Below the pieces are notes generated by a model. That model ran no database searches. It saw nothing but the letters and a program-made list of their open reading frames with translations, and was not told where the DNA came from. 64,000 bases of DNA from Vicinamibacterales bacterium (GTDB taxonomy: Bacteria; Acidobacteriota; Vicinamibacteria; Vicinamibacterales; UBA8438), in contig CBDHGC010000004.1 of NCBI GenBank assembly GCA_965262925.1, forward strand, positions 6,481,112 to 6,545,111. The letters run 5' to 3'. Below, piece by piece: positions 86 to 20,199 of the stretch; positions within the stretch are counted from its first letter, which is position 1, and every line of letters starts with the position of its first letter. The position numbers and the translations under genes were made by a program.

Positions 86-1136
86 GGAACTGTCCACCTC
101 AGCGCCCTTGCTCATCTCACCGTCCTGTCTGGTCCCGACCGTCTTCGCCGGCCGCCTTCCCCAACCCACTCGGTTGCCGCCCCCTGACGGTCACGCGGCT
201 TTCACCGCGCTTCAGGTACTATTCGGCCGTCCGACTCCTCGACGAGCATCCCTTCCCACTTCGCTCTCGCTTATAGGGTCAGTTGCCGCGGCGCCACCCG
301 CGGACCCGCCGAGGTCTCCCAGGGTCACGCACTGGTCTTCCATACCGTGCCGCCCGCAAACACCTTGGTGCGGTGGGTGGATGAGATCGCCTTCGCCTCT
401 GTAGTGCAGGCTCGACCTTGCCCCACCTTTGGCCGACCGGTTCGTCATGGGGTCGCCCCCTCGACTACGGCCCGGTACTGCTCCGCAAACCCTTCGGACC
501 CCACCTCACGGTGGGCGCCCTGTCCTCCGCAGTTCCGTCGTGGCGGCTCCAGGTCCACCTTGGCTGTGTCCGGCTTTCGCCTGCGTGCCCGTGTAGGTGT
601 CTCCATACCTGCCACCTGCGGCCGGCGAGGCATTACCCCCGCCTTTGGATACGGCCCCCCTCATCCGGGGGCCGGAGGGACTTCAACCCTCCTGACCAGT
701 GCGCTGCCTGGCGCACACTACGGGCCTCTCCGCCACCCTCGCCGGCCCGACCTGACCCTCACGGGCTGTCGGTTGGCACCGTGCCACGCCGCCGGCAGGG
801 CTTCCCGTGTTGCGTCCATTCCCCTCTTCCATGCGTGCCGCCGCCAATACCCCGGCGGAACCGGCCGGTGCTTCCGTCGCTCGCTTCCCGGCCCGTGGCA
901 GCCTTCCCCGTATTGTGGGCGGGTCGGCTTCCGCATTCGACGTTTCGAGGCCTGCTCGGCGTTCACTCGCGTTGCGGCCCGCATGGTCGCTGAGCCGCCC
1001 AATGGCGACCCGTGTCGTCGGAGTGCTTCAGGCGATGTCGTTGCCTCCATCGTCCGCTCCGACTGCTACCGGCTGGAACGACAGTTGCCGGGCGGGATTC
1101 GCACCCGCTGAGGAATGGCGCCTTCGCACGGCGCAC
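1..1136 (-). mobile_element. Group II intron-like retroelement, 5' part (ribozyme domains plus first codons of the intron-encoded ORF); continues beyond window start
   Basis: About 1 kb has no credible ORF. The minus strand is GC-rich with many GNRA-capped hairpins (GCGAAAGC, GGTGAAAGCC). GTGCG motifs (group II 5' consensus GUGYG) lie at 1136 and 716. A Shine-Dalgarno (GAGGTGG) plus ATG at 85 opens an ORF that leaves the window. The element interrupts the LuxR HTH reading frame at ~1137-1150. Domains V/VI and the RT body are off-window, so class and identity are unverified. Confidence 0.5.
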
Positions 1137-1891
1137 CACAATGATGTCGTGCACCCCTTGCTGACGCCCGCCTTGCGGTAGATGTTCTTCAGGTGGTAGC
1201 GGACCCCCTCGTACGAGATGCCCAGGCGACCGCCTATCTCCTTGCCCCGCAGACCGCGTGCCGCCTCCGACAGCACGTCCAGCTCGCGCCTCGAGAAGAG
1301 TTGCCGGTCGCTGGCCGAGTCGATGCTGACGACAATGCCTTCTCGCGGTTCCGCTCGAGATCGAGCTCGATCAGCAGCACGTCGGTGCTCACCGTGAGGC
1401 AGGGATTGGAGGAGAAGAACTTCCGGACTCCCCGCCGCGCCCGGCGGTATCTTCGGCCGGCCTCCTCCACACGTCCCTGCGCCATGGCCGCCATACCCAG
1501 GCAGGTATCGACGAAGACCTCTCCGAACCGCGTGTCCTCGGTAGAGCAGGCCTGCGCCTGCAGACCGTGCCGGCGGCTCTCCTCGAATCGGGCGCGCTCG
1601 TAACACGCGACGCACAGCAGGGTGTGCCGGGCACAGGCCAGCGTCCGGCACATCCGCCAGCACCGTCGTCTTGCCGAATCCGGCGGGTGCCTGCAACACC
1701 GTCAGCCGCCGTTCCAGCACCCCCTCGAGGCGCTGCAGCAACGATGCACGGCTGACGTATCCTGCGGGCAACTCCGGCGCCAGCACCTTCTGCTGCAGCA
1801 GCCAGGACCCGCCGCTCGGCGCCGAGACGCCAGGACCGCCCGACCTGCGGAGACCGAACGTCACCTTGGATGGAGATGGCTGGGGGCGCAT
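1137..1891 (-). pseudogene. LuxR/MalT-family regulator remnant
   Basis: Three pieces lie in different frames: a P-loop N-terminus (LTVLQAPAGFGKTTVLADV), a TPR-like piece (frame of ORF 1234-1653) and a LuxR HTH (LSRRELDVLSEAARGLRGKEIGGRLGISYEGVRYHLKNIYRKAGVS). Only ~250 of the ~900 aa expected remain. The HTH is cut right after KAGVSKG by the retroelement. Confidence 0.6.
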
Positions 1892-2157
1892 GAACGCCAA
1901 GAAGCTCCTGCTACCTTGAGTTCCTGCTCGTTGGCAACCATGAACGACATAATCGCAGCGCGCAACCCTACTACGAAACGCAGCACGGGCGCGACGGCAA
2001 AATTCCTCATGCCTCACGCTAGCAGAGCCTGGGACCTTGGCGCTCTCGCTAAATTCCTCTACGCTGAGCACTGAATGAGAGAAGGCCTTGCATGGTCGGA
2101 ACCGCCTGCTCGGCATGCGCGATTTGCCAAGTTTGGCCTCCATACTCTTTGCAGACG

Positions 2158-3099
2158 ATGTCTCTTCCTGATTTTCCACCCCTCAACGCGCTGCGCTTCT
2201 TCGAGGCGGCCGCGCGCCACGGCAGCTTCGCTGCGGCTGCTCGGGAGTTGCGCGTCACGCCAGCCTCCGTTTCGTATCGCGTCAAGACCGTCGAGAGACA
2301 TCTTGGAACGACCCTGTTCTTGCGATTCGCACACGGCGTGCGTCTGAACCCGCAGGGCAAAGCCTATCTGAAGGATATCCAACGCATCTTCGCGGATTTC
2401 AATCACGCGACCGAGCGCCACCGCCACCGCCGCAAGACGCCGCTTCTGAAACTGGTTGCTATCGAGGTGGTTGCCGAGAAATGGTTGATGCCGCAGCTTG
2501 CCCATTTCAAGACCCTGCACCCCGACATCGCCATCGAGTTCGAAGTCGACCACGGCGACGTCGACCCCGATCGGCGGGATTTCGACGTTTGGATAGCCTT
2601 TGCCGACGAGGTACCCGACACGGTTCATTCGGAGAAGCTGCTCGAGGAGACACTGTTTCCCGTCTGCAGTCCGAGCCTGCTCCAGGCCCGGGGCCGGCCC
2701 CGGAAACCAAAGGATTTACATGCCTGGCCGCTCGTTTACGACCTTCACTGGACCACCGACTGGTCCCACTGGTTCGCTCATCACGGCGTGGCATCCGCGG
2801 ACTTGTCTGAGGCCTCCGGGTTTCGTCTCTACACGATGGTCGTTCAGGCTGCGCTCGACGGTATCGGCGTGGCTCTCGGCCACTCATTGATGATCGCCCG
2901 CGAGCTGGAACAGGGAACACTTGTCACGCTGTTCGACTCTCCGGTCGCCGCACCCGCCCCGTATTTGCTCGTGACCGCTGAGGCCTCCCGCGAGAAACCG
3001 CAGGTCGTGGCGTTCCGCAACTGGATCTTCCGTCAAGCGTCCTCGAAGACGCTCGATTTCCATACAGGGCCGATAGCACCGGTGACGCGACATGTCTGA
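2158..3099 (+). CDS. LysR-family transcriptional regulator (GcvA/AmpR-like)
   Basis: N-terminal wHTH LNALRFFEAAARHGSFAAAARELRVTPASVSYRVKTVE followed by a LysR substrate-binding domain. ATG 2158 is preferred to the upstream ORF start at 2092. Confidence 0.9.
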   Translation: MSLPDFPPLNALRFFEAAARHGSFAAAARELRVTPASVSYRVKTVERHLGTTLFLRFAHGVRLNPQGKAYLKDIQRIFADFNHATERHRHRRKTPLLKLVAIEVVAEKWLMPQLAHFKTLHPDIAIEFEVDHGDVDPDRRDFDVWIAFADEVPDTVHSEKLLEETLFPVCSPSLLQARGRPRKPKDLHAWPLVYDLHWTTDWSHWFAHHGVASADLSEASGFRLYTMVVQAALDGIGVALGHSLMIARELEQGTLVTLFDSPVAAPAPYLLVTAEASREKPQVVAFRNWIFRQASSKTLDFHTGPIAPVTRHV

Positions 3100-3179
3100 G
3101 TGGTTCTGTCCGAGTCCAGGCAGATCGATGCCGCCGCGAACGCCCACCGCGCGCTCATGCATCCCCTCATTTTGCAGCA

Positions 3180-3362
3180 TCAGATCACGCCGAAAACCTC
3201 CCGATACACCCGCTGTTCCATGAGCATGCTTCCGAACGTCTCCATCAACGGACGAATCCGATCCTCGGGCCAATTGGGGAGATGGTGGTACAGCATCAGC
3301 CCCTGCCGAAACAGCGAATGCGTCCGCCGCTTCACCGTGTTCGCCTTCAACCAGCGGTCATA
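3180..3362 (-). pseudogene. 3'-terminal remnant of an unidentified gene, truncated at the AT-rich IS flank
   Basis: Open frame without a start: YDRWLKANTVKRRTHSLFRQGLMLYHHLPNWPEDRIRPLMETFGSMLMEQRVYREVFGVI*. It begins directly after a stop at the GC/AT composition break at ~3363. Family not recognised. Confidence 0.25.
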
Positions 3363-3415
3363 TTAATAGGGTCATTGGTTGCCTGACAGCATACAGGTAA
3401 TTTCCGGTTTGATTT

Positions 3416-4573
3416 CCTCATATTTCGGCATACTGTGAGGTCAGGATACTTATTTCCAGCTTAATAACCGATGCGCTCGCCAGCCGCACCCAGCAACGAC
3501 AGAACGGCGATCGCCAACGCGCTGATCAACAACAGACGGTCCCGCCGGTCCGGGCGCGAAACATGCATCGACGAGAGTCCCATCCCGAAGCGCATGTCCT
3601 TGATGTCCCGAAAGCCCGCCTCAATCCCCCAGCGCTTGCCGTAGTACCGAATCAGGACCCGCGTCGGGACTGTCGCTTCGCTGGCCACCAGGCACCACGG
3701 TTCGTCCATCTTCGGATCCTGTACGCACACGACCACGCCGACCGGCAGCTCGTACGCGTCGGTCACCCGAGCACCCACCAACCGCCGCGCACGCCCCTTG
3801 TCGCCGACCCACGCGGCGGCCGCTCGCCGCTCGCCGCGCGCATTCGTCACATAGATGTCTCCACGCAGCCGAATCACGTATTCGAAGGCCAGCTCCGTCG
3901 TCAACGCGTAGAACAGCTTGCAATCCGCAAAGCCCCGGTCCGCCACGACGGTGACTTTCACCCCGGCCGGCAGCACCTCCCGCAACCGGCACAGCACCTC
4001 GTACTCATAGCGCCGCTGATTACCCTTCAGCGTCGAGGACGCCACCGTCTTCCACAGCAGGGGCGTCGCGCGCCCATGGCCAGTCACCATCGACAGCACG
4101 ATCGTGTCCTGCCCGTCGGCCGCAAAGCTGGTCCAATCCAGCGCAACGATCACCTCCGTGCGGGCGCCGACGATGAACGGCGTCCAGTATGCGAAAAAGG
4201 TCCAGACGTCGACGCCTCGATTGCTCAGGAGCCGATCCACCTGCTTCACACCATGCTTGGTCAACGTACCCAGGGCCTGGGCCAAGCCGCGGCCCACTGC
4301 ATGGATTGCCAGCGAAGCGCTCGTCAGCACGCCCAGGGTGGCGTTGGCCAACGACAGCACCCGTTTGGCATGCAGGTCGCCTTCATACAAGGTGGCGATG
4401 AAGTTCAGGAGGTCGTGTCTCCGGAGCGATTGCCCGGATGAGGCCGGCAGATCTTGATGTAGATGCATGCAATATTATTCTAATTCAAAGTGCGCCACCT
4501 TGCAAACTTTTCTAATGCGAGATGTCTGTTCAAGAAGGGTTTCTTCTTATTGATTTCATATGGCAAAATGAGG
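3416..4573 (-). mobile_element. IS4-family insertion sequence (approximate ends)
   Basis: AT-rich flanks contrast with the GC-rich surroundings. Imperfect terminal inverted repeat: CCTCATATTTCGGCATA (3416-3432) versus the reverse complement of CATATGGCAAAATGAGG (4557-4573). Encloses one DDE transposase gene. No clear target duplication seen. Confidence 0.55.
3461..4468 (-). CDS. IS4-family DDE transposase
   Basis: DDE signature VALDWTSF ... VVADRGF ... YGKRWGIEAGFRDIKD, matching the IS4 Y-x2-R-x3-E-x6-K motif. 335 aa. Confidence 0.85.
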   Translation of the reverse strand: MHLHQDLPASSGQSLRRHDLLNFIATLYEGDLHAKRVLSLANATLGVLTSASLAIHAVGRGLAQALGTLTKHGVKQVDRLLSNRGVDVWTFFAYWTPFIVGARTEVIVALDWTSFAADGQDTIVLSMVTGHGRATPLLWKTVASSTLKGNQRRYEYEVLCRLREVLPAGVKVTVVADRGFADCKLFYALTTELAFEYVIRLRGDIYVTNARGERRAAAAWVGDKGRARRLVGARVTDAYELPVGVVVCVQDPKMDEPWCLVASEATVPTRVLIRYYGKRWGIEAGFRDIKDMRFGMGLSSMHVSRPDRRDRLLLISALAIAVLSLLGAAGERIGY

Positions 4574-4996
4574 GGATCTCTGAGCACCGCGCGAGCGCAT
4601 GGCGCGTCACGTTGGCGACACGGAGCTTGGCGAGACCGGGCGTCGATTCTGCGGCGGTCTCACGCGCCGGGCAGTGAAGTTGGATCGCCCCCCGCCGTCT
4701 TGCGCGCGGGATACGGAATCTCTACAGTTCGGGTATGACCCGAACCGAGGAATGGGTCGCTTTCGGCACTCTCGCCCTGACGATCATCGGGGCCGTGCGG
4801 AAGTGTCGGGCGTGGACGGCGAGCCCGGCCGCGTCCCACAGGTGATTCTGGCGCCCCTCGATTTACTTCCACCGGAGTTTCCCGCGGTCGATGAAGAGGC
4901 CTGTTGCCGAGCTGCGAAGTTCTGAAGGAAACTGGACTCCGGTCGACCGCAAGATGTTGTGGTTACCGGCGGCATCGTCAAGCCAACAGCGTGCGC

Positions 4997-5080
4997 GTGC
5001 GCGGAGCCGGCGTCAAGGCGCGTCGCTTCGCTCCGCCCCCGCTCCGCGGGGCTGACGGCCCTGACGCCGGCTCCGCGCAC
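4997..5080. repeat. Perfect 19-bp inverted repeat with nested hairpin (REP/MITE-like or terminator-like)
   Basis: GTGCGCGGAGCCGGCGTCA (4997-5015) and its exact reverse complement TGACGCCGGCTCCGCGCAC (5062-5080), 46 nt apart. Inner hairpin CCCCGC-TCC-GCGGGG. Confidence 0.6.
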
Positions 5081-5346
5081 GCTCGTCCAGACTGGCTCTT
5101 GCTGACGATGCCCACTCATACGCCCCCTACATGTTGTGGTCGCCCGTCCTGTCCAGGATGACACGCTTTCCGGAGACCGTTGACAAGGCCTTCTGAGGCG
5201 CACATCTCGCCGATCTCCGACCGGGTGCGTCTCTCGCCCCGGATCATCATCGACCGGCAGCGTACCACGTCGCAGGCGTGCTCGAAATCCACCCGGAGCC
5301 CGCCCAGGAGCCAAGAAAACCGCTTAGAGCGGCAGTTTCTGGACCG

Positions 5347-7085
5347 CCTAGCCCGGAAAATTCGTGGCGTGTTCTGATTCCGGTACAGACACAAGAGCCC
5401 CCGTGTGGTACAAGTGCAGTGTTAACAACCACTTGCGCCACCACGGAGGCCCTTGCGTGACGACCGACACTGTACCACAGACTGTTCTGTTCCCGGATCT
5501 GTTTGACAAGCCGCTGTTCGCCCAGTTCAACCAGGAGCAGGCCAGTTCCGACGGCGGGGCGATCCTGCTGAAGGCCGCCGAGCGCATCTACGGCCTGGTC
5601 AAGGCGTTCGCCGGGTGTCTGTTCGACAAGCGGGCGCCGGACAAGACCCGGCACTCGCTCGCGGACCTGATCGGCCAGCGCATCTTTGGCATCGCCTGCG
5701 GCCATCCCGACTGCAATGATGGCGACCGTCTCGCCGACGACCCCATCCACAAGCTGCTGCTCGACAGAGACCCGGTTTCGGGCGAGCGCCTGGCGTCGCA
5801 GCCGACGCTGTCGCGGTTCGAGAACGCGGTCAACGGCTGCGCGCTCTACCGCATGGCGGACGAGTTGGCCACGCGGGTCATCGCGCGGCATCGCCGCCGC
5901 CTGGACGGGCGGGCGCGGTGCATCACGATCGATCTGGACCCGACGGACGACCCGACGCACGGGGCGCAGCAGTACACGCTCTTCAACGGCTACTACGACA
6001 ACTGGTGCTACCTGCCGCTGCTTGGCTTCCTGACCTTCGACCGCGAATCCGAGCAGTATCTGTGCGCGGCGCTGTTGCGGCACGGCAAGGCGGTCGCCTC
6101 GGAGGGGACGGTCGGGCTGTTGTCGCGGTTGCTGCCGCGGCTGCGCCGGGCGTTTCCGCGGGCGCGCATTCTCGTTCGGCTCGACGGAGGCTTTGCCAGC
6201 CCGGCGGTCTTTGCCTTCCTGGAGGCGCAGCCGCGGCTCGATTACGTGATCGCGATGGCGAAGAACGCGGTGTTGGAGCGGTACGCCGAGCCGGCCATGC
6301 TGGTGGCGCGGGCGCGGACGTGGCGCAGCGAACAGACCGAGCACGTCTACACCGAGACCAACGAGTACCAGGCCGGCACGTGGAACCACGCGCGCCGCGT
6401 GGTGATCAAGGCCGAAGTCGTCCGCCACCGAGACCGCGAGCCGCGGGACAATCCGCGCTTCGTCGTGACCAACATGCGGCAGACGCCGCGTTTCCTCTAC
6501 GAGAAGGTCTACTGCGCCCGCGGGGACGCCGAGAACCGGATCAAGGAACTGAAGGCCCTACAGATCGACCGCACGAGTTGCCAGGCGTTTTCGGCGAATC
6601 AGTTGCGCGTCCTGCTGACGGCGGCGGCCTACGTGCTGATGCAGGAGTTGCGGCTGCGCGCCGCAGACACCGCGTGCGCCCGCGCGCAGGTGCCTTGGCT
6701 GCGCGACCGGCTGCTGAAGCTCGGCGTCCAGGTGGTGTGCTCGGTGCGTCGCATCGTCCTGCGCCTGCCGCGCGCGACACCGGACCTGGCGGCGTGGCGA
6801 CACATTGCGTTCGCGCTCGGGGCGCGCGCCGGATAGCCGCTCAACGAGCATCGCATCGCTGCCGGCCGGAGGGCTGTCAACCGCCTGACGGGTGGAACTG
6901 TCGTTGCCCGCCTCTTGCCGCCCTCATCACTACGGCGGTCGGCCGCTTGACCACACCATCACCCGCGGTCGGCGACGTTCGAAGGGCCGCCCACCCGTCG
7001 ATCACCCTCTACCGGTGACCGAATCGGGTGCTGTCACCTCCTGCCGGTGACCGCGGCGGGGTCGCCGTGAATAATCCAGGCTAGA
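5347..7085 (+). mobile_element. IS1380-family insertion sequence
   Basis: Terminal inverted repeats CTAGCCCGGAAAATTCGTGGCG (5348-5369) and the reverse complement of CGCCGTGAATAATCCAGGCTAG (7063-7084) match at 17/22. Size ~1.74 kb fits the family. Single transposase gene. Confidence 0.75.
5457..6836 (+). CDS. IS1380-family (DDE group 1) transposase
   Basis: Family-typical blocks: DGGAILL, QPTLSRFEN, IDLDPTDDPTHGAQQ...FNGYY, VRLDGGFASP, YCARGDAENRIKELK. GTG 5457 gives the usual N-terminus (TTDTVPQTVLFPD); the ORF track also allows 5364. Confidence 0.85.
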   Translation: MTTDTVPQTVLFPDLFDKPLFAQFNQEQASSDGGAILLKAAERIYGLVKAFAGCLFDKRAPDKTRHSLADLIGQRIFGIACGHPDCNDGDRLADDPIHKLLLDRDPVSGERLASQPTLSRFENAVNGCALYRMADELATRVIARHRRRLDGRARCITIDLDPTDDPTHGAQQYTLFNGYYDNWCYLPLLGFLTFDRESEQYLCAALLRHGKAVASEGTVGLLSRLLPRLRRAFPRARILVRLDGGFASPAVFAFLEAQPRLDYVIAMAKNAVLERYAEPAMLVARARTWRSEQTEHVYTETNEYQAGTWNHARRVVIKAEVVRHRDREPRDNPRFVVTNMRQTPRFLYEKVYCARGDAENRIKELKALQIDRTSCQAFSANQLRVLLTAAAYVLMQELRLRAADTACARAQVPWLRDRLLKLGVQVVCSVRRIVLRLPRATPDLAAWRHIAFALGARAG

Positions 7086-7181: not shown

Positions 7182-9637
7182 CTGCCCGTGCCCCATATTT
7201 TTTCGCTGAACTTCATGCAGCCACTTCGCTACGGTGGCCGGCATGGAGATTCAGAATCAGGTCTCACGTATTCTACGGGACAACCTCGCCCGCCTGCGCG
7301 ACGTGCTGGACGGAGCGGTGTCGCAGAGCGTCGGCAGCCTCGGGCAGGTCGCCGACCGCGTCTGTGAAGCGTTCGATTTCCGCGACGGGCGGGGCCGGTG
7401 GCAGCGCGCGAGCTGCTGCCGGGCGTTGTCCGACCTGCAAGCGGCCGGCCACGTTTCGCTGCCTGCGGGCCAGCCGGCTCGCGGCGTTGGGGGCCGGGCG
7501 CGGGTGCTTCCGCACCCGATGGCGCCGGCCGTGGACGTGCCGGGCACGGTCGGCAAGGTTGCGGGTCTGACCCTGGCGCTGGTTGAGACCGACGCGCAGC
7601 GCCAAGTCTGGAACACGCTGATGGCGTACGAGCACCCGCGCGGCGCCGGTCCGTTCGTCGGCCCGCAACTGCGGTATCTGGTGGGTTCGGCGCATGGTTG
7701 GCTGGGCGGCGTCGGGTTCGCGGCGAGTGCGCGGCGGCTGCGGTCCCGCGACGCCTGGGTCGGGTGGGACGACACGGGCCGGCGCGCGCACCTGCACCGG
7801 GTGTTGGGACTGTGCCGGCTGCTGGTGCGCCCCGGCATTGTGTGTCGCAACCTGGCCTCGCACGTGCTGGGCCGGGTCGTCCGGGCAGTCGGCGACGACT
7901 GCGAGGGTCTGTATGGCTATCGCCCCTGGCTGCTGGAGACGTTCGTCGACGAGACCGAACAGACGGGGGCGAGCGTGCGCGCGGCCAACTGGGTTCGGGT
8001 GGGCGCAACCTGCGGTCGCGGTCGCGGGGACCGCAGGCACGCGGCACTGGAAACGCGCAAGGCGGTGTATATGTATGCCTTGGAGCCGGCGTGGCGCACC
8101 CGCCTCGCGGCGCCCGCAGCGGTCGTGGCGCCGCTGGCGGTTGGCGACGGTCTCGACGCCGCGGTCTGGGCGGACCACGAGTTCGGCGGGGCGCGGTTGG
8201 GCGACGCGCGTCTGAGCGCGCGGCTGGTACAGAGCGCGCAGCAAATGGCAGAGTCTCCGATGCGCGCCATCACCGGCGCCGCCCACGGCGCCCGCGCCCT
8301 GGTCAAGGGCCATTACCGGCTGATCGACCAGCCCGCCGACAGCGCGGTGACGGTCGGCAACATTCTCGCGCCGCATCGCGAGCGCACGCTGCGCCGGATG
8401 CAGGCGCACGACACGGTGCTGTGCATCCAGGACGGCACCCGCCTGAACTTCACCCGGCGCGGCCGGACGCAGGGGCTGGGGGCCATCGGCTCGAACCAGA
8501 CCGGCGCGGTGGCGCGCGGCCTGGAGTTGCACACGACCTTGGCCGCCAATCCCGACGGGGTGGCGTTGGGCGTGCTGCGGGCCGCCTTCGACGCGCCCGC
8601 GTCCCCGAACCCCGCGGCGGAAGGCGAGCCGCCCCCGAAGCCGCGCGAGGAGCGCAAGTCGTTCCGTTGGATCGAGGGACTGCGCGACTGCGCGCAAGCG
8701 GCCGAGTCATTGTCCGAGACCCGCGTGGTGTGCGTGATGGACCGCGAGGCCGATTTCCTCGACCTGTTCGTCGAGCACCGCGCGGCTGCCCCGCAGGTCG
8801 ACCTGTTGGTCCGCGCCAAGGCCGACCGCGTCCTCGGCAGGGAGCAGACGCCCGACGGGCAGACAGTCTCGCGCCGTCTGTTCGATACGGTGCGCAACGC
8901 GCCGGCCCGAGGCGCCGCCAAGGTCGAGGTGCAGCGGCTGAGCGCGCGCGTGAAGGCCAGCAAACAGGCCCGCAAGGACCGCCGCGAGGCGCGTGTCGCC
9001 GACGTGACGCTGCGCTACCAGCAGGTGGCGCTGCCCTGCCCCGGCGCCGCGCCGGTCGAACTGTGGGTCGTCCATGTACGCGAGCAACAGCCGCCGCCTG
9101 CGGCCGAGCCGCTGGAGTGGTTCCTGCTGACCACGTTGCGTGTGAGCAGCGCCGCTGACGCCACGCGCATCCTGCAATGGTACGCTCGGCGCTGGCGCAT
9201 CGAAGAATACTTCCGGGTGCTCAAGTCGGGCTGCAGCGTCGAGGAGTTGCAGCACCACACGGCCGAGCGGCTCGAACGCGCCATGGCCATCAAGATGGTC
9301 ATCGGGTGGCGCATCCAGTTGATGGTTCAACTCGGGCGCGAAGTGCCCGACCTGCCGGGCGACCTGCTGTTCTCCGATGGCGAGTTGCGCGTGCTCGCCA
9401 CCTTCGCCCGCTCACGCAAGCTGCCGCCGCCGGCGCGCCTCGGCGACGCTGTCGGTCTGGTCGGGCGCCTCGGCGGTTGGCTCGGACGCCAACGCGACCC
9501 GCCCGGCGCACAGTTGATGTGGCACGGCTACACCCAACTGGTTGCCATGGCCTTCGCCTTCGAACTACGGGACGAATTCGGGTGACCTCCTGCTCATTAC
9601 ATTACAGTTCAGCCTCGGACATCCGGGGCACGGGTAG
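7182..9637 (+). mobile_element. Tn5/IS50-like (IS4 family) insertion sequence, 2456 bp
   Basis: IRL is CTGCCCGTGCCCC...CTGAACT (7182-7212). IRR (reverse complement of 9606-9637) is CTACCCGTGCCCC...CTGAACT. Flanks are nearly identical: GCCTAGCT (7174-7181) versus GCGTAGCT (9638-9645), consistent with an 8-9-bp target duplication. Confidence 0.8.
7234..9585 (+). CDS. Tn5-like DDE transposase with ~300-aa N-terminal DUF4338/DruA-like extension
   Basis: The C-terminal 470 aa resemble Tn5 Tnp: WADHEFGGARLGDARLSARLV..., VLCIQDGTRL, VCVMDREADF, WYARRWRIEEYFRVLKSGC. The N-terminal block has LRYLV...GWLGGVGF..RD.WVGW...RNLASHVLGR...YGYRPWLLETFVD, recalled as the DUF4338 pattern. Not HMM-verified. Confidence 0.85.
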   Translation: MAGMEIQNQVSRILRDNLARLRDVLDGAVSQSVGSLGQVADRVCEAFDFRDGRGRWQRASCCRALSDLQAAGHVSLPAGQPARGVGGRARVLPHPMAPAVDVPGTVGKVAGLTLALVETDAQRQVWNTLMAYEHPRGAGPFVGPQLRYLVGSAHGWLGGVGFAASARRLRSRDAWVGWDDTGRRAHLHRVLGLCRLLVRPGIVCRNLASHVLGRVVRAVGDDCEGLYGYRPWLLETFVDETEQTGASVRAANWVRVGATCGRGRGDRRHAALETRKAVYMYALEPAWRTRLAAPAAVVAPLAVGDGLDAAVWADHEFGGARLGDARLSARLVQSAQQMAESPMRAITGAAHGARALVKGHYRLIDQPADSAVTVGNILAPHRERTLRRMQAHDTVLCIQDGTRLNFTRRGRTQGLGAIGSNQTGAVARGLELHTTLAANPDGVALGVLRAAFDAPASPNPAAEGEPPPKPREERKSFRWIEGLRDCAQAAESLSETRVVCVMDREADFLDLFVEHRAAAPQVDLLVRAKADRVLGREQTPDGQTVSRRLFDTVRNAPARGAAKVEVQRLSARVKASKQARKDRREARVADVTLRYQQVALPCPGAAPVELWVVHVREQQPPPAAEPLEWFLLTTLRVSSAADATRILQWYARRWRIEEYFRVLKSGCSVEELQHHTAERLERAMAIKMVIGWRIQLMVQLGREVPDLPGDLLFSDGELRVLATFARSRKLPPPARLGDAVGLVGRLGGWLGRQRDPPGAQLMWHGYTQLVAMAFAFELRDEFG

Positions 9638-9679: not shown

Positions 9680-9898
9680 TCGCCTCTCGAGGCCAAATGA
9701 AGCGAAAGCGGAATTCTCAAAGCAGGGATTCGAGCCCGGAGCCGCGGGAGCGGCGGAGCGCCTGAAGCCCACTCTCGCCGCCAAAACACACGGCAGGCAA
9801 CGGCGGAATTCTCAAAGCAGGGATTCGAGCCCGGAGCCGCGGGAGCGGCGGAGCGCCTGAATCCCACTCTCGCCGCCAAATGAAGCGAAAGCGGAATT
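9680..9898. repeat. tRNA-Ser(GGA) 3'-end-derived palindromic tandem repeats (~2.3 units, period ~95 bp)
   Basis: Units are anchored on GGGATTCGAGCCC at 9725 and 9820. Each contains CCTGAA(G/T)CCCACTCTCGCCGCCAAA, the sense copy of the tRNA 3' end, on the strand opposite the gene. The array directly abuts the tRNA 3' end. Confidence 0.85.
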
Positions 9899-9991
9899 TG
9901 GCGGAGAGAGTGGGATTCGAACCCACGGTAGGAGGATTACCCCTACACACGCTTTCCAAGCGTGCACCTTCAACCTCTCGGACATCTCTCC
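9899..9991 (-). tRNA. tRNA-Ser (anticodon GGA), CCA encoded
   Basis: GGAGAGATGTCCGAGAGGTTGAAGGTGCACGCTTGGAAAGCGTGTGTAGGGGTAATCCTCCTACCGTGGGTTCGAATCCCACTCTCTCCGCCA. 7-bp acceptor stem, anticodon loop TTGGAAA, long variable arm, T-loop TTCGAAT. Confidence 0.92.
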
Positions 9992-10081: not shown

Positions 10082-10762
10082 TCAGAATTCCCGTAGGCGC
10101 GACGACACGATGACATCCATCGCGCGGATATCCCTCTGCTGCACGAGGAGAGCCTTGTACGCGTGGTTGTACGCCTGCAGCATGTAGCCGAGCCGGGTCG
10201 TCCGGGCCAGACGGATCAGTCCTCCCCCGGAAGCGAGTTCCACGTAAACCTCGTCGCCGTCCTGCACCCGGCGGCTCGGGACTGCGATCGCGACGGTCTT
10301 CGGCCGGTGAGCTGGAACCATCGAGTCGCCACTGATCAGAATCCCGTAGGCGTCCGGATCGCGCAGGTCTCTCGGCCGGGACACCCAGTGCACGACGCCG
10401 GTCCGCTCTGCCCCCCGGTCGTCCCACGAGAGACCCGCCGGCGAAGCATCGCCCTCTGCCACCACCGGAATGCCGGCGGGTGTCACGATCGGGGATTCGA
10501 TACGCTCAGGTGCCGCACCAGCCACTCCGCACGCCTCCCGCACCCGGTCGTAGTCCGGATCGACCCCTACGAGCAACTCATCGACTGAGCAGCGGAGACC
10601 CTTCGCGATCTTGACGAGAGTCAGCGTTTCCAGGACGGAATAGCGGTCATTCTCCCAGTCAGAGACCTGGGGCTGCGGGACGCCCAGCAGGTCGGCCAAC
10701 GCCTTCTGCGTGTCAAGCCCCGCGTCCCGGCGCAACCGCCTGATGTTCTGGCCCAGCGACAC
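10082..10762 (-). CDS. XRE-HTH / S24 (LexA/CI-like) repressor, paralog A
   Basis: N-terminal HTH QKALADLLGVPQPQVSDWENDRY. C-terminal S24 fold with GDSM serine motif. The position aligned to LexA K156 (Ser+37) reads LIRLA, i.e. Arg. GTG start. Confidence 0.85.
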   Translation of the reverse strand: MSLGQNIRRLRRDAGLDTQKALADLLGVPQPQVSDWENDRYSVLETLTLVKIAKGLRCSVDELLVGVDPDYDRVREACGVAGAAPERIESPIVTPAGIPVVAEGDASPAGLSWDDRGAERTGVVHWVSRPRDLRDPDAYGILISGDSMVPAHRPKTVAIAVPSRRVQDGDEVYVELASGGGLIRLARTTRLGYMLQAYNHAYKALLVQQRDIRAMDVIVSSRLREF

Positions 10763-10872: not shown

Positions 10873-11559
10873 TCAGAAGTCCCGGCGGCGCGAGTACAGA
10901 ATGACGTGCATGGAATGAATGTCTTTCGCCTTGACGAAGCGCGCCGTGTAGACGTGATTGTACGTCTGCAGCATGTAGCCGCCGTGGGTCGCGTACGCCA
11001 AGCGGACCAGACACTCGCCGGACGGCAACCTGACGTAAACCTCGTCACCGTCCTGCACCCGACGGCCGGGAGACACGATCACGATGGAGCTCGGCCGGTG
11101 CGCCGGGGCCATCGAGTCGCCACGGATCTGAACGCCGTAAGCGTTCGGATCACGCAGATCCCCGGGGCGCGATATCCACTGCACGATGTCGGCTCGCTCT
11201 CTGCCCCGGTCGTCCGAGGTGACACCGTCCGGCAACGCCTCGCCTTCCGCCACCACGGGAATGTCAACGGGCACTTCGACCAGGAGATCGACGCTGGCAG
11301 CCTCGCGGACGGCGGCGCCGGTAGCCTCCCGAACCCGGTCGTAGTCCGGATCGATGCCCGCAAGCAACTGGTCCACGGAGCAGCGGAGGCCTTTCGCGAT
11401 CTTGACGAGGGTCAGGGTTTCCAGGACCGCGTAGCGGTCGTTCTCCCAGTCGGACACCTGGGGTTGCGGGACGCCCAGCAGGTCTGCCAGCGCCTTCTGG
11501 GTCTGGAGACCGGCCTCCCAACGCAGCCGCTTGATGTTCTGACCGAGCGACACGACCAC
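10873..11559 (-). CDS. XRE-HTH / S24 (LexA/CI-like) repressor, paralog B
   Basis: About 65-70% identical to paralog A, with a nearly identical HTH. Has GDSM; the Lys-equivalent position reads LVRLA (Arg). Start is GTG 11559 or GTG 11553. Confidence 0.85.
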   Translation of the reverse strand: MVVSLGQNIKRLRWEAGLQTQKALADLLGVPQPQVSDWENDRYAVLETLTLVKIAKGLRCSVDQLLAGIDPDYDRVREATGAAVREAASVDLLVEVPVDIPVVAEGEALPDGVTSDDRGRERADIVQWISRPGDLRDPNAYGVQIRGDSMAPAHRPSSIVIVSPGRRVQDGDEVYVRLPSGECLVRLAYATHGGYMLQTYNHVYTARFVKAKDIHSMHVILYSRRRDF

Positions 11560-11674
11560 AGATTACCGCATTTGAGGGTTCACGTTCAAAAACGTACCTC
11601 AATTCAATCAATGACTTACCGCTCAAAAAAATAGTCTTTACACGTTACTCCCGACCACATATAGTCAGAACCCG
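11560..11674. promoter_or_regulatory. Divergent control region between repressor B and the Cro-like gene
   Basis: AT-rich 115 bp. Contains CACGTTCAAAAACGTAC (arms ACGTT/AACGT, 11581-11597) and CACGTTAC (11641-11648). ATTGATTGA-like -35 candidates are shared with the paralog A upstream region. Confidence 0.35.
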
Positions 11675-11926
11675 ATGCTCACCAAGCAGCAACTCGAGAT
11701 CCTCCGTTCCGAGCCCGGCACCAACCGCGTGGCGAAGGCTATCGCCCTGGCCGGAGTCACGCAGGTGACCGTCGCCGAGGGACTCGGTTTGCCGCAGCCC
11801 TACGTCAGCGACGTGGCGCGACAACGCTACAAGACTATTACCGTCGAGAACGCCAGAAAGTTCGCAAAATTTTTCGGCTGCTCGATCGAGGACCTGTTCC
11901 CGCCGGCCGACGGGGGCAACTCGTGA
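11675..11926 (+). CDS. Small XRE/Cro-type HTH protein
   Basis: 83 aa. HTH GVTQVTVAEGLGLPQPYVSDVARQRY shares the LG.PQP.VSD...RY signature with both S24 repressors. Divergently transcribed from repressor B. Confidence 0.75.
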   Translation: MLTKQQLEILRSEPGTNRVAKAIALAGVTQVTVAEGLGLPQPYVSDVARQRYKTITVENARKFAKFFGCSIEDLFPPADGGNS

Positions 11927-11963
11927 CCCGGCGCATCGTCCGGCGGCCGTCGCCGAGGCGCCC

Positions 11964-12290
11964 GTGACGAGCCCGGCTCAACGCGATCGCGAGTTCACCT
12001 TCGGAAGCACGCCCTGCTACGTTGTCGTCCGGGCAGGCACGCCGCCGACCACGAGCGCGGCGATCGCCGACGTCTTCATCGTCGAAGAAGGGGGACGGGC
12101 TCTCCGCCGGATCGCCAACGCCCAAGGTACGCCGAGAACATTCAATGCCGATGGCGCCGACGAGGCGCTCGCCCTCGCGGCCCTGTACCTGGAGCGCCAT
12201 TTCGGACCACTTCGAGACGCCCCGGTCCCCGTCCCCGAACACGGTCCCGCCCGCCCCGTTCGCGAGCCGCCCCTGCGCCGGACCGACTGA
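11964..12290 (+). CDS. Hypothetical protein (108 aa)
   Basis: GTG-initiated ORF with high third-position GC. Lies downstream of and co-oriented with the Cro-like gene. No recognisable motif. Confidence 0.35.
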   Translation: MTSPAQRDREFTFGSTPCYVVVRAGTPPTTSAAIADVFIVEEGGRALRRIANAQGTPRTFNADGADEALALAALYLERHFGPLRDAPVPVPEHGPARPVREPPLRRTD

Positions 12291-12329
12291 CGGAACCGGC
12301 GAGTCCAGCGCCGGCAAGCATGGACGGGG

Positions 12330-12801
12330 CAAGGGATTCGTGCCCGAAGCGGCGCGAGCCGCGCAGCGCCTGAATCCCACCCTCTCCGCCAAATGGAGCG
12401 AATGCGGAATTTGGCGAAAAAACGAGCAGGGATTCGTGCCCGAAGCGGCGCGAGCCGCGCAGCGCCTGAATCCCACCCTCTCCGCCAAATGGAGCGAATG
12501 CGGAAATTTGGCGGAGAAAACGAGCAGGGATTCGTGCCCGGAGCGGCGGGAGCCGCGCAGCGCCTGAATCCCACCCTCTCCGCCAAATGGAGCGAATGCG
12601 GAAATTTGGCGGAGAAAACGAGCAGGGATTCGTGCCCGGAGCGGCGGGAGCCGCGCAGCGCCTGAATCCCACCCTCTCCGCCAAATGGAGCGAATGCGGA
12701 AATTTGGCGGAGAAAACGAGCAGGGATTCGTGCCCGGAGCGGCGGGAGCCGCGGAGCGCCTGAATCCCACCCTCTCCACCAAATGGAGCGAATGCGGAAT
12801 T
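12330..12801. repeat. tRNA-Ser(CGA) 3'-end-derived palindromic tandem repeats (~4.8 units, period 96-98 bp)
   Basis: GGGATTCGTGCCC anchors at 12333, 12429, 12527, 12625 and 12723. Each unit carries GAATCCCACCCTCTCCGCCA, the last 20 nt of the adjacent tRNA, on the opposite strand, plus a degenerate antisense arm TTTGGCGGAGAAAACGAGCAGGGATTC. Ends exactly at the tRNA 3' end. Confidence 0.9.
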
Positions 12802-12892
12802 TGGCGGAGAGGGTGGGATTCGAACCCACGTGCCGGTTTCCCGACAAGACGCTTTCGAGGCGCCCCCGTTACGACCACTTCGGTACCTCTCC
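12802..12892 (-). tRNA. tRNA-Ser (anticodon CGA), CCA encoded
   Basis: GGAGAGGTACCGAAGTGGTCGTAACGGGGGCGCCTCGAAAGCGTCTTGTCGGGAAACCGGCACGTGGGTTCGAATCCCACCCTCTCCGCCA. Anticodon loop CTCGAAA, long variable arm. Confidence 0.9.
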
Positions 12893-12933
12893 GCGTGGTG
12901 GCCTTCCATTGTACGCCGGCCGGCGTCCCCGCG

Positions 12934-13413
12934 TCAGCCGGCCGGCGCATCCGCCGCGTGCCGCCGCGCGCTGAAGAACGCCTGCATCCTGCCGCGGCAC
13001 TCGTCGCCGAGGACGCCGGCGACCACCGCCACGCGATGATTCAGCGCCGGATGCTCGAGCGCGCGCATCACGGAACGCACGGCTCCCGCCTTCGGCTCGG
13101 GGGCGCCGTACACCAGCGTGCCAATCCGCGCATGAACCAGCGCACCGGCGCACATCAGACACGGCTCGACGGTCACGTACAGCGTCGCGCCGGTCAGCCG
13201 GTAATTGCCCGCGCGACGGGCCGCGTCGCGCAGAGCCACGACCTCGGCGTGCGCCGTCGGATCGACCTCCCCGATCGGGTGGTTGAAGCCGCGGCCGATG
13301 ATGCGCCCCGTGTCGCGCTCGACCACGACGGCGCCCACCGGCACCTCGTCGCTGGCCATCGCCCTGGATGCTTCCGCCAGGGCCTCCCGCATGTACGCCT
13401 CGTGCTCGACCAT
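12934..13413 (-). CDS. tadA: tRNA-specific adenosine deaminase
   Basis: CDA zinc motifs HAEVVAL and [15 protein letters not shown] at 13413 ([12 protein letters not shown]) is preferred to the long ORF start at 13560, which would overlap the next gene. Confidence 0.9.
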
Positions 13414-13468
13414 CGGAATCGCGGGGGCGGCGGTTCGCCGATGCAGCCCGCTATGATTATCCTCCACG

Positions 13469-14533
13469 ATGAAGGGACTCATCCTCAGCGGCGGCAGGGG
13501 CACGCGCCTGCGGCCGCTCACGTTCACCAGCGCCAAGCAGCTCGTCCCGGTGGCGAACAAGCCGGTGCTGTTCTACGGCATCGAAACGCTGGCCGCGGCC
13601 GGGATCCGCGAGATCGGCATCGTCGTGGGCGATACGCAGGCGGAAATCGAGGCAGCGGTCGGCGACGGGTCGCAATGGGGGGTGACGGTCAGCTACATTC
13701 CGCAGGACGCGCCGCGCGGACTCGCGCATGCCGTGCGGATCGCCGAACCGTTCATCGGAGACGATCCCTTCGTGATGTACCTGGGCGACAACCTGCTCGC
13801 GAAAGGCATCGTCCCGTTCGTCGAGGAATTCGCGGCGACGCGGCCGGCGGCCCAGATTCTGCTCACGCCGGTGCCGCACCCGGAGCAGTACGGCGTGGCC
13901 GAGACCGACGGCGACCGGGTTGTCCGGCTGATCGAGAAGCCGAAGATCCCCAGGAGCAACCTGGCCCTGGTGGGCGTCTACATGTTCGGCCCCGCGATCT
14001 TCGAATCGGTCCGGCGGATCGCGCCGAGCCTCAGGAACGAGCTCGAGATCACGGACGCGATACAGGACCTGATCGACCGCGGTCTGGAGGTCCGCCGCCA
14101 CATCGTCGACGGGTGGTGGAAGGACACCGGGCGCCTGGAGGACCTGCTGGAGGCCAACCGGCTGATCCTCGACACCCTGACCCGGCGGATCGACGGCGCG
14201 GTGGACGCTGAATCGCGTGTCGAGGGCAAGGTCGTGGTCGAGCCGGGCGCGGTCATTTCGGGGTCGGTGGTCCGCGGCCCGGTCATCATCGGACATGATG
14301 CACGCATCCGCGACGCGTACATCGGGCCGTTCACCGCGATCATGCGCGACGTGGAGATCAGCGGGTCCGAGATCGAGCACAGCATCGTGATGGAGGGCAG
14401 CCGCATCACGGACCTGACCGGCCGCGTCACCGACAGCCTGATCGGCCGCAGCGTCACCATCGCCCGCCATTCCGGCAAGCCGGCGGCGCTGCGGTTCATG
14501 CTCGGCGACCGCTCGGAAGTGGGCCTTCGCTGA
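13469..14533 (+). CDS. Glucose-1-phosphate thymidylyltransferase, long form with left-handed beta-helix C-terminus
   Basis: [30 protein letters not shown] nucleotidyltransferase signature. 354 aa. Sits in the rml gene context. Confidence 0.85.
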
Positions 14534-20122: not shown

Positions 20123-20199
20123 TGGCGCGCCCTGCAGGATTCGAACCTGCGGCCTCCTGGTTCGTAGCCAGACGCTCTATCCAGCTGAGCTAAGGGCGC
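20123..20199 (-). tRNA. tRNA-Arg (anticodon ACG), CCA encoded
   Basis: GCGCCCTTAGCTCAGCTGGATAGAGCGTCTGGCTACGAACCAGGAGGCCGCAGGTTCGAATCCTGCAGGGCGCGCCA. Anticodon loop CTACGAA. Confidence 0.92.

Follow-up and report, generated by a model that had tools for sequence, protein, structure and literature searches.

The locus described here raises the question of why a tRNA gene should be followed by repeated copies of its own 3′ end, and whether such copies are peculiar to that one gene. It lies in a stretch of 64,000 nucleotides (the window) from a Vicinamibacterales bacterium (NCBI GenBank assembly GCA_965262925.1, contig CBDHGC010000004.1, positions 6,481,112 to 6,545,111 of the forward strand), in which five tandem palindromic units, here called array A, stand directly behind tRNA-Ser(CGA). 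Our analysis showed that array A is a real, non-chance member of an apparently undescribed family of tRNA-linked palindromic modules in Acidobacteriota. We found no published description of such a family in the literature on tRNA-flank repeats, on repeats of Acidobacteria and Vicinamibacter, or on rtT.

Array A and its tRNA gene

The first-pass annotation of the window, made from the letters alone, proposed five units anchored at GGGATTCG (12333, 12429, 12527, 12625, and 12723) and abutting the tRNA gene. Tandem Repeats Finder (TRF) recovered the same structure at 12332-12810, with a period of 98, 4.9 copies, 97% matches, and a score of 888. The units measure 96, 98, 98, and 98 bp, and the last one continues into the tRNA end. 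Array A adjoins the 3′ end of tRNA-Ser(CGA) and fills the whole interval between the tRNA and the open reading frame (ORF) at 11964-12290. A 22-nt core pattern had 6 matches in the window, while 0.00 were expected from shuffled sequences.

12802-12892, minus strand: tRNA-Ser(CGA) (ARAGORN; Rfam tRNA model, 52.3 bits)
12330-12801: array A, five tandem units (TRF; repeat search; nhmmer, 83-90 bits per unit)
12372-12394, plus strand: inverted arm of unit 1, an exact plus-strand copy of the tRNA 3′ end with AAT (repeat search)
12468-12490, 12566-12588, 12664-12686, and 12762-12784, plus strand: inverted arms of the other units (repeat search)
12349-12362: central GC hairpin of unit 1, GCGGC-GCGA-GCCGC (sequence; folds)
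12445-12458, 12543-12556, 12641-12654, and 12739-12752: central GC hairpins of the other units (sequence; folds)
12504-12532, plus strand: degenerate direct copy of the tRNA end in one unit, ATTTGGCGGAGAAAACGAGCAGGGATTC (sequence; alignment with relatives having a perfect arm)
12785-12798: purine-rich conserved spacer, GGAGCGAATGCGGA on the plus strand (repeat search)

The template of the repeat arms is the last 20 nt of tRNA-Ser(CGA), GAATCCCACCCTCTCCGCCA. Read on the plus strand, a unit begins with a degenerate antisense copy of the tRNA end (TGGCGGAGAAAACGAGCAGGGATTCG), followed by the conserved stretch TGCCCGGAGC and the GC hairpin GCGGC-G(G/C)GA-GCCGC, the loop of which is GCGA in units 1-2 and GGGA in units 3-5. 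Then come GCAGCGCCT, an exact sense copy of the last 20 nt of the tRNA with AAT (GAATCCCACCCTCTCCGCCAAAT), and the spacer GGAGCGAATGCGGAA. What the first-pass annotation termed a degenerate antisense copy becomes, when read on the tRNA-sense strand, a direct repeat of the tRNA 3′ end in degenerate form; on that strand ATTTGGCGGAGAAAACGAGCAGGGATTC reads GAATCCCTGCTCGTTTTCTCCGCCAAAT, and it recurs every 98 bp. The spacer at 12785-12798 is the loop between the tRNA end (or the preceding unit) and the next inverted arm, and a spacer of this GAGCG/GAAGC type is present in all family members.

The derivation of the arms from the tRNA 3′ end, and with it the palindromic nature of the units, was borne out by the complementarity. 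Over 23 nt, four of the five inverted arms (12372-12394, 12468-12490, 12566-12588, and 12664-12686) show 100% complementarity to 12799-12821, the T-loop-to-CCA segment of the tRNA with 3 further nt. In the proximal arm (12762-12784) the complementarity to this segment is 96%, with 1 mismatch, and 14 nt separate the two.

Spurious ORFs of 255-508 aa run through the array and the tRNA gene: 11838-12950, 12017-12847, 12142-12909 (minus), and 12685-14211 (plus). In contigs of the same species, called genes of 240-366 aa with no Pfam match cross the array (L001 8760-9482, L002 5192-6292). A coding role of the array was rejected, because the periods (98, 95, 94, 91, 111, and 125) are not, as a set, multiples of 3 and the ORFs are repeat-induced.

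A second array behind tRNA-Ser(GGA)

A second array of the same family, absent from the first-pass annotation, adjoins tRNA-Ser(GGA) at a distance of 2.9 kb from array A.

9899-9991, minus strand: tRNA-Ser(GGA) (ARAGORN; Rfam tRNA model, 53 bits)
9684-9898: array B, about 2.2 units of 95 bp (TRF 9708-9880, period 95; repeat search; nhmmer, 63 and 79 bits)
20123-20199, minus strand: tRNA-Arg(ACG) (ARAGORN)

The cores of array B are at 9725 and 9820, and its inverted arms at 9764-9785 and 9859-9881. Arrays A and B have in common the core AGCAGGGATTCG(A/T)GCCCGGAGC, and the lineage-specific GGGA loop and spacer sequence, yet the arm variant in each is that of its own tRNA: the inverted arms of array B carry the ACT variant of tRNA-Ser(GGA), with CCCACTCTC in place of CCCACCCTC. 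The stem of array B is swapped, GCCGC/GCGGC versus GCGGC/GCCGC in array A. Altogether the window holds seven units, all at the two tRNA-Ser flanks. No module was found at tRNA-Arg(ACG) of the window, the trailer of which reads CTTCTTGTTCTT.

Distribution of the family

The exact pattern GCAGGGATTCGNGCCCGNAGC was scanned against 185,579 genomes, one per species. The scan returned 20 stretches, with 8 unit-bearing loci, 1-2 per genome, all at tRNA ends or tRNA fragments. Seven of the eight belong to metagenome-assembled genomes of Acidobacteriota (three Vicinamibacterales, two of them complete chromosomes; one Luteitalea; and three unclassified Acidobacteriota), and the eighth is a short contig binned as Gammaproteobacteria. 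The complete Vicinamibacterales chromosomes OZ220736 and OZ251506 have matches at one tRNA locus each. A metagenome scan with the pattern GGGATTCGNGCCCGNAGCNGCG gave 79 stretches. In the profile search, true units scored at least 40 bits and were separated from chance matches in coding DNA. Both scans require exact 19-base matches, and diverged copies would escape them.

After removal of duplicates 57 distinct arrays remained, almost all in Acidobacteriota (Vicinamibacterales) genomes or in unassigned soil and wetland metagenome contigs. Their neighbours are as follows.

Intact tRNA-Ser(cga): 14 of 57
Intact tRNA-Ser(gga): 10 of 57
Intact tRNA-Ser(gct): 4 of 57
Intact tRNA-Ser(tga): 4 of 57
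Intact tRNA-Gln(ctg): 2 of 57
Displaced 3′ fragment of tRNA-Ser or tRNA-Gln: 11 of 57
Contig end: 4 of 57
Arrays interrupted by gaps, insertions, or truncations: 8 of 57

An intact tRNA gene is thus the neighbour in 34 of the 57 arrays. The unit is not unique to tRNA-Ser(CGA), as array B and its presence at four tRNA-Ser isoacceptors (CGA, GGA, TGA, and GCT) and at tRNA-Gln(CTG) indicate, and the scans turned up no copies scattered genome-wide. The orientation is invariant, all units of at least 40 bits being on the strand in register with the tRNA 3′ flank. Most arrays consist of a single unit (44 arrays); 8 have two, 3 have three, and four and five units occur once each, array A being the largest found. 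The pattern scan of viral contigs and BLAST searches against plasmids and phages gave no family matches.

The part of the core that was not constrained by the search pattern, GCCGC-GGAGYGCCTGAAG, is conserved across the five tRNA species. Relatives with flanks only 77-88% identical also have the module at the orthologous Ser(CGA)-tadA locus. One of these, L018 (OZ220736), has the synteny of the window at about 87% flank identity, which places the window in Vicinamibacterales, and is without a module at Ser(GGA). In L018 ARAGORN also called a tRNA-Arg(GCG) at 2191-2285 (95 nt, anticodon at position 38), whose unusual length may mark a false positive or an atypical gene.

Two unit types and arms that follow the local tRNA

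Comparison of the units revealed two types. Units of the common type have a direct arm that repeats the last 21 nt of the tRNA perfectly, from T-loop C56 through CCA (antisense strand: TGG...ATTCG), and an inverted arm with only a 50-75% match. Over 18-21 nt the direct arm has 0 mismatches at 13 distinct loci with an intact tRNA and at most of the fragment loci, and in most relatives this perfect copy is 89-101 bp from the tRNA end. The claim of the first-pass annotation that the array is not the direct partial-tRNA duplication left by integrases was therefore not supported: each unit also has a direct tRNA-end copy, which in most relatives is a perfect 21-nt one, as in a classical att-type identity block.

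In the second type, found in the window, L018, L026, L032, L062, and L082, an A-rich stretch (U-rich on the tRNA-sense strand) takes the place of the direct arm, the inverted arm being almost perfect. To this type belong four of the five arrays of at least three units (counting the gap-split Ser(CGA) array of L026), the common-type exceptions being L021 (three units) and L025 (four units). In both types the tRNA identity ends at the same T-loop position and is followed by (T/A/C)GCCCG(G/A)AGC.

Of 53 units, 46 have an inverted arm whose best match is to its own tRNA class (SerGGA 15/15, SerCGA 18/21, SerGCT 7/8, Gln 6/6, SerTGA 0/3). Both arms thus track the local tRNA, and the core is common to all.

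Copy number within the species

Metagenome contigs of the same species were retrieved from ENA by way of the neighbouring RmlA-like protein; their flanks are 99.6-99.8% identical to the window. The number of units at tRNA-Ser(CGA) is 1 in L001 and L009, 2 in L002, L003, and L004, and 5 in the window, and the difference in length between L001 and the window amounts to 4 × 98 bp. All same-species contigs that cover array B have 2 cores there.

That the repeat was over-expanded by the assembler in this contig has next to no probability: near-identical contigs have only 1-2 units, but the five units of the window differ internally (CCCGAAGC and a GCGA loop mark units 1-2, CCCGGAGC and GGGA units 3-4, and GGAG and CACCA unit 5), which makes such an expansion unlikely, and arrays of 2-4 units occur independently in other genomes, complete chromosomes included.

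On the 5′ side of the tRNA the same-species contigs also vary. IS110-family transposase genes and extra ORFs lie between tRNA-Ser(CGA) and tadA in L002 (6289-7026), L003 (5392-6246), and L005 (1716-2702), and the window has no IS110-family insertion there.

Folding and terminator-like signals

The whole of array A folds far more stably than shuffled sequences, with z = −8.3 for RNA of the tRNA-sense strand, z = −5.5 for RNA of the plus strand, and z = −7.1 for DNA. The centroid fold contains periodic inter-unit and central hairpins, as expected from the earlier proposal that neighbouring units pair with each other into one continuous structure. The consensus fold of 52 units contained two short hairpins only, GGG/CCC around ATTCGNG and the GC hairpin, and whole-unit consensus folding did not recover the outer stem, the degenerate arms of which do not align. 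Across the family the GC hairpin shows a single compensatory pair, GC to CG, in four sequences of two lineages. Two non-Watson-Crick stem variants favour the tRNA-sense strand, being G-U there and A-C on the opposite one.

Terminator-like signals were found on the tRNA-sense strand of the window.

12717-12736, 12619-12638, 12521-12540, and 12423-12442, minus strand (tRNA-sense): small terminator-like hairpin followed by TTTTCT (terminator scan)

Each unit of the window has a hairpin and GUUUUCU on the tRNA-sense strand. Among 27 relatives, the 20 nt after the distal CCA contain 30.6% T, versus 17% locus-wide, and a T-run within 30 nt of the distal CCA is present in 11 of 27 loci, versus 4 of 27 in a control window. 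On the plus strand, a promoter-like site at 11637-11665 precedes the gene of a helix-turn-helix (HTH) protein, and there is no terminator between this site and the array. Two other roles were examined and rejected. A bias of the Rho-utilisation type (C-rich) was weak, the GC skew being only about 0.08-0.1, and a CsrA-type GGA sponge does not agree with the linker, which is GGA, GAA, or GCA.

Mobile elements at the same tRNA genes

Where an element has integrated in one of these tRNA genes, the unit is left on the chromosomal side, beside the displaced 3′ fragment. L038 is an example: an intact tRNA-Gln lies 4.9 kb from the fragment and its unit, and there is no unit behind the intact tRNA-Gln. 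The 11 displaced fragments show at least four junction types, which indicates that these tRNA genes are busy integration sites. At L055 and L069 the junction, ATTCG/TTCCCG (the slash marks the break), coincides with the unit's own boundary. No recombinase gene or cargo was found between the repeats in any of the 34 intact-tRNA loci.

No full-length element with the core at one end was found when the candidates L079, L061, and L099 were looked at. L079 was dismissed as a truncated dehydrogenase-type gene. L061, which has a break in the spacer, adjoins what looks by eye like the N-terminus of an IS256-type transposase. L099 has a 2.4-kb cassette (about 1105-3540, in tRNA-antisense orientation) directly after the unit's CCA, between two units downstream of tRNA-Ser(CGA). 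The products of this cassette are an AbiEii nucleotidyltransferase toxin (PF08843, 135 bits) and a protein with DUF6088, and it is the single case that links AbiEii to the units.

One further element end was noted. The sequence AACCCTAT(A/G)AA(T/C)GCGC..TTCTAAC..GGTGATG(A/G)CGCGCGACTTCTGG adjoins displaced 3′ fragments in L017 (about 5400-5460) and at the equivalent places in L049 and L100, and the fragments are from two tRNA-Ser species, GCT-type and GGA-type. The three appear to be one integrative-element family that uses several tRNA-Ser genes.

Neighbouring genes

The genes around the arrays in the window and in the same-species contigs encode HTH/S24 repressors, tadA, and insertion sequence (IS) transposases; no integrase was among them. 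Between the two tRNA-Ser genes of the window lie two tandem paralogous HTH_3 + Peptidase_S24 (LexA/CI-like) genes, at 10082-10762 and 10873-11559 on the minus strand, which form a DNA repeat 791 bp apart with 72-84% identity. Next to them are an 83-aa HTH_3 gene (11675-11926, plus) and then a 108-aa ORF (11964-12290, plus) with no Pfam match. The relative L018 has a single S24 gene and is without the 108-aa ORF.

A Tn5/IS4-type transposase (DDE_Tnp_1, Dimer_Tnp_Tn5, and a DruA-domain match) at 7234-9585 on the plus strand ends about 100 bp before array B, and its counterpart in L001 is at 4165-6507. In L002 and L003, of the same species, a different 472-aa gene stands between the transposase and array B, and hence this flank is polymorphic.

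What the modules may be

We tentatively favour, at a little short of an even chance, the reading that the module is a co-transcribed tRNA trailer with a terminator-like hairpin, amplified by unequal recombination and with arms re-templated from the tRNA. The family consists of 90-125-bp palindromic modules immediately 3′ of tRNA-Ser and tRNA-Gln in Vicinamibacterales and related Acidobacteriota. On the tRNA-sense strand such a module opens with a pyrimidine-rich spacer (14-25 nt), continues with the last ~20 nt of the tRNA in inverted copy and a conserved core of ~45 nt with a GC hairpin of 5-7 bp, and ends with a pseudo-T-arm and the direct T-loop-to-CCA copy. The module is always co-oriented with the tRNA, and the 14-25 nt of the spacer place it too near for a promoter of its own or an intervening terminator; being too close to the tRNA for separate transcription, it would be part of the tRNA 3′ trailer. 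The inverted copy is predicted to pair with the direct copy across the core into a long irregular hairpin, after which the U-rich tail would follow.

In the lineage of the window, GUUUUCU would have moved into the degenerate direct arm, so that every unit would form a terminator-like hairpin and the whole array would work as an iterated terminator or insulator facing the convergent operon of the HTH gene and the 108-aa ORF. An iterated terminator was among the roles suggested in the first-pass annotation, and it agrees with the hairpin and GUUUUCU of each unit and with the U-rich tail of relatives; the number of terminator-like sites in the window, 4 versus 2.9 expected from shuffles, is not significant by itself. 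Unequal recombination or replication slippage between the tRNA-end-like direct repeats that bound the units may expand and contract the array. The copy-number polymorphism itself is observed, and this would be its mechanism. The co-variation of arms and tRNA is likewise observed, and the match would be maintained by gene conversion and by hairpin-templated (quasi-palindrome) template switching against the selected tRNA gene. Such template switching and conversion are said to have been established for quasi-palindromes by Ripley and by Lovett and co-workers. In favour of the trailer reading we count the invariant orientation and position, the place of the module outside integrated elements, its presence at the Ser(CGA)-tadA locus of diverged relatives, the conserved core, the arms that follow the local tRNA, the U-rich tail, the variable copy number, and the lineage-specific features common to arrays A and B.

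Several points weigh against the trailer reading. The structural support is thin, consisting of two short consensus hairpins and one compensatory pair. Part of the invariance of the core is set by the 19-base search pattern, so that its conservation and the restriction to Ser and Gln are in part ascertainment. Read on the opposite strand, most hairpin loops are GNGA, a GNRA type in which all four N occur, and single units fold only modestly better than shuffled sequences on the tRNA-sense strand (mean z −1.5) and more stably on the opposite one (mean z −2.7). The four terminator-like sites of the window do not significantly exceed the 2.9 expected, and many loci are without a U-tract. A terminator has no obvious need for a perfect copy of the tRNA end that stops exactly in the T-loop. 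Finally, transcription, termination, and the strand used are for these organisms predicted from the sequence.

The last but one of these points is what the main rival reading would explain. The module may be a miniature non-autonomous recombination module of the att type, with the direct tRNA-end copy as the identity block of a tyrosine recombinase that crosses over in the T-loop. Arrays would arise by tandem accretion or recombination of att copies, and the palindrome might act as a single-stranded DNA mimic of the tRNA gene end, as in integron attC or the attP of CTX phage. The perfect direct copy agrees with this, as does the stop of identity at one and the same T-loop position (after ATTCG) in all five tRNA species, which is the junction of the integrated element at L055 and L069. 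So do the heavy use of tRNA-Ser and tRNA-Gln for integration (11 displaced fragments, several junction types), the insertions directly beside units (the L099 cassette after CCA, the L061 spacer break), and the within-species copy-number polymorphism. We nevertheless regard it as rather unlikely. The 34 intact-tRNA loci have neither recombinase nor cargo between the repeats, no full-length element with the core at one end was found among the candidates, and viral contigs, plasmids, and phages gave no matches. At true integrations, as in L038, the unit lies outside the element. Moreover, a circle of ~95 bp is physically implausible as a recombination substrate, and the copy number per genome is very low.

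It is also improbable, if worth keeping in mind, that the arrays are a neutral by-product without function, that is, a tRNA-flank palindrome duplicated by slippage and perfected by template switching. A copy number free to vary from 1 to 5 would fit this, as would the lack of a module at Ser(GGA) in L018, the weak structural covariation, and the perfection of one arm in some units and of the other arm in the rest, which is to be expected where nothing but conversion against the tRNA gene constrains them. Nevertheless, the core is conserved across tRNA species and across lineages with coding flanks ~77-88% identical, the spacer motif is conserved, the U-rich tail is non-random, and the module persists at the orthologous locus across the order.

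A more speculative proposal, to which we give only a small chance, takes one of two forms. The modules would be (a) processed trailer RNAs with decoy copies or perfect complements of the acceptor 3′ end of tRNA-Ser and tRNA-Gln, which might titrate enzymes working on that end, such as nucleotidyltransferase toxins of the AbiEii/MenT type (compare the L099 cassette), or (b) non-autonomous recombination sites that mimic the tRNA gene end when folded as single-stranded DNA. In either form they may re-template their arms on the adjacent tRNA. AbiEii/MenT toxins act on tRNA acceptor ends, and MenT3 prefers tRNA-Ser.

The reverse strand offers a further reading, which we consider very doubtful. In the window, read-through of the operon of the HTH gene and the 108-aa ORF would yield an opposite-strand RNA with GNRA hairpins, acting as an antisense regulator of the tRNA precursor or as a sponge and containing perfect complements of the tRNA 3′ end (common type) or perfect copies of it (window type). 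It would draw on the G-N-G-A loops with all four N on that strand, on the better folding there (single-unit mean −46.3 versus −39.3 kcal/mol on the tRNA-sense strand, besides the z values given above), and on the promoter-like site at 11637-11665 with no terminator up to the array. However, purine richness and tetraloop bonuses would be expected to account for part of the energy difference, the two non-Watson-Crick stem variants speak for the tRNA-sense strand, and it is there that the U-rich tail lies. A conserved promoter did not emerge, and the perfect arm differs between the unit types, which leaves no single conserved antisense target.

We retain the trailer and terminator-like hairpin as the working explanation. 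The pattern is clear and reproducible and is good comparative material, while for an unusual mechanism there is no evidence yet. The family spans dozens of loci and five tRNA species, its core is conserved, and its arms follow the adjacent tRNA in either orientation. It thus provides material for studying tRNA termination in GC-rich Acidobacteria, the upkeep of identity between repeat and gene by conversion or template switching, and a possible influence of tRNA-end copies on the very frequent integration of mobile elements at these tRNA genes. The arrays are copy-number-polymorphic markers within species and a trap for assemblers and gene callers, and the module could seed a new Rfam or repeat-library entry.

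Comparison with known repeats and RNAs

The arrays differ from CRISPR arrays, as the first-pass annotation had held. Their units of 96-98 bp stand head to tail with 97% identity over the whole period, and since no unique spacer lies between them they are not CRISPR. Dispersed palindromes such as REP/BIME, ERIC, and MITE are also imperfect palindromes of ~35-130 bp in transcribed intergenic DNA, sometimes in tandem. Those elements, however, have tens to hundreds of dispersed copies with constant ends, while the module has few copies per genome, all found at tRNA 3′ flanks, and its ends vary according to the tRNA. On the exact 19-base scans, with one tRNA locus each in OZ220736 and OZ251506, the units are thus no genome-wide REP/MITE, in agreement with the earlier expectation.

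Neither ARAGORN nor the Rfam tRNA model finds a tRNA or tRNA-like gene in the units. Their pseudo-T stem is just 3 bp long, and pairing of the inverted arm extends to the discriminator and CCA. We considered a degenerate tRNA-Ser pseudogene and rejected it, as there is no match to the tRNA model and the inverted arm covers the complement of CCA and T-stem. As for integron attC sites, the genes called in the region of the window include no integrase.

Partial tRNA duplications at attL/attR, and the tandem accretion of cis-mobilizable elements (CIMEs), have reportedly been described by Williams in 2002 and by Pavlovic et al. in 2004. Like these, the module has a direct repeat of the tRNA 3′ segment from the T-loop (C56) to CCA at hot-spot tRNA genes, perfect over 21 nt in most relatives and degenerate in the units of the window. 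In contrast to them, only ~75 bp of non-coding DNA lie between the repeats, with no integrase or cargo among the neighbouring genes of the window and the same-species contigs; there is an extra inverted copy, and the inter-repeat sequence is conserved across the target tRNAs.

Among trailer RNAs, the 3′ETS-leuZ sponge is reportedly a tRNA 3′ external transcribed spacer that acts as an RNA (Lalaouna et al. in 2015 are said to have shown this). It resembles the module as a tRNA trailer of conserved sequence that could be stable after processing, but it is neither repeated nor tRNA-derived.

The model of the Rfam family sX4 (RF02223) scored 35.0 bits in the window (12771-12904, minus strand), which is below its gathering score of 70 and comes mostly from the tRNA part; the matches in L095 (1301-1438) and L063 (1007-1157) had 28.6 and 27.9 bits. 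A cmscan of 12250-12950 at E values up to 10 gave no unit match to rtT or other families, only to tRNA, sX4, and chance microRNA-type models, and nine related loci scanned with Rfam likewise gave only tRNA, sX4, and chance matches. sX4 is a 156-nt species seen by RNA-seq in Xanthomonas, with Northern signals of 280-300 nt (PMC3300014). In its model, as in the module, the T-stem and acceptor 3′ strand of the tRNA pair with a downstream G-run, that is, a hairpin of tRNA end and inverted copy. Unlike the module, it has no tandem units and no conserved core, and it belongs to a different phylum. Its consensus suggests that hairpins of tRNA end and trailer at tRNA-Ser(CGA) occur in Xanthomonas as well, and, being a tRNA-Ser(CGA) with a pairing trailer that was detected as a transcript, sX4 is a partial precedent for the trailer reading.

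By analogy the closest counterpart is the distal repeat region of E. coli tyrT (rtT RNA). It reportedly consists of 3.14 copies of a 178-bp unit ending with the last 19 nt of tRNA-Tyr, as Egan and Landy in 1978, Rossi et al. in 1981, and Bosl and Kersten in 1991 are said to have described, and its function is still unexplained. Like the modules, these repeats are in tandem directly downstream of a tRNA gene, with the tRNA 3′ end including CCA in each unit, and they form a co-transcribed trailer in a termination region, as the modules would. They are, however, direct copies only, not palindromic, of a longer unit, and confined to a single enterobacterial locus, whereas the module also has an inverted copy and a core common to five tRNA species in many genera. 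Repeats that copy a tRNA end have thus been known since E. coli tyrT, and here they form a recognisable family in an abundant, poorly studied soil phylum.

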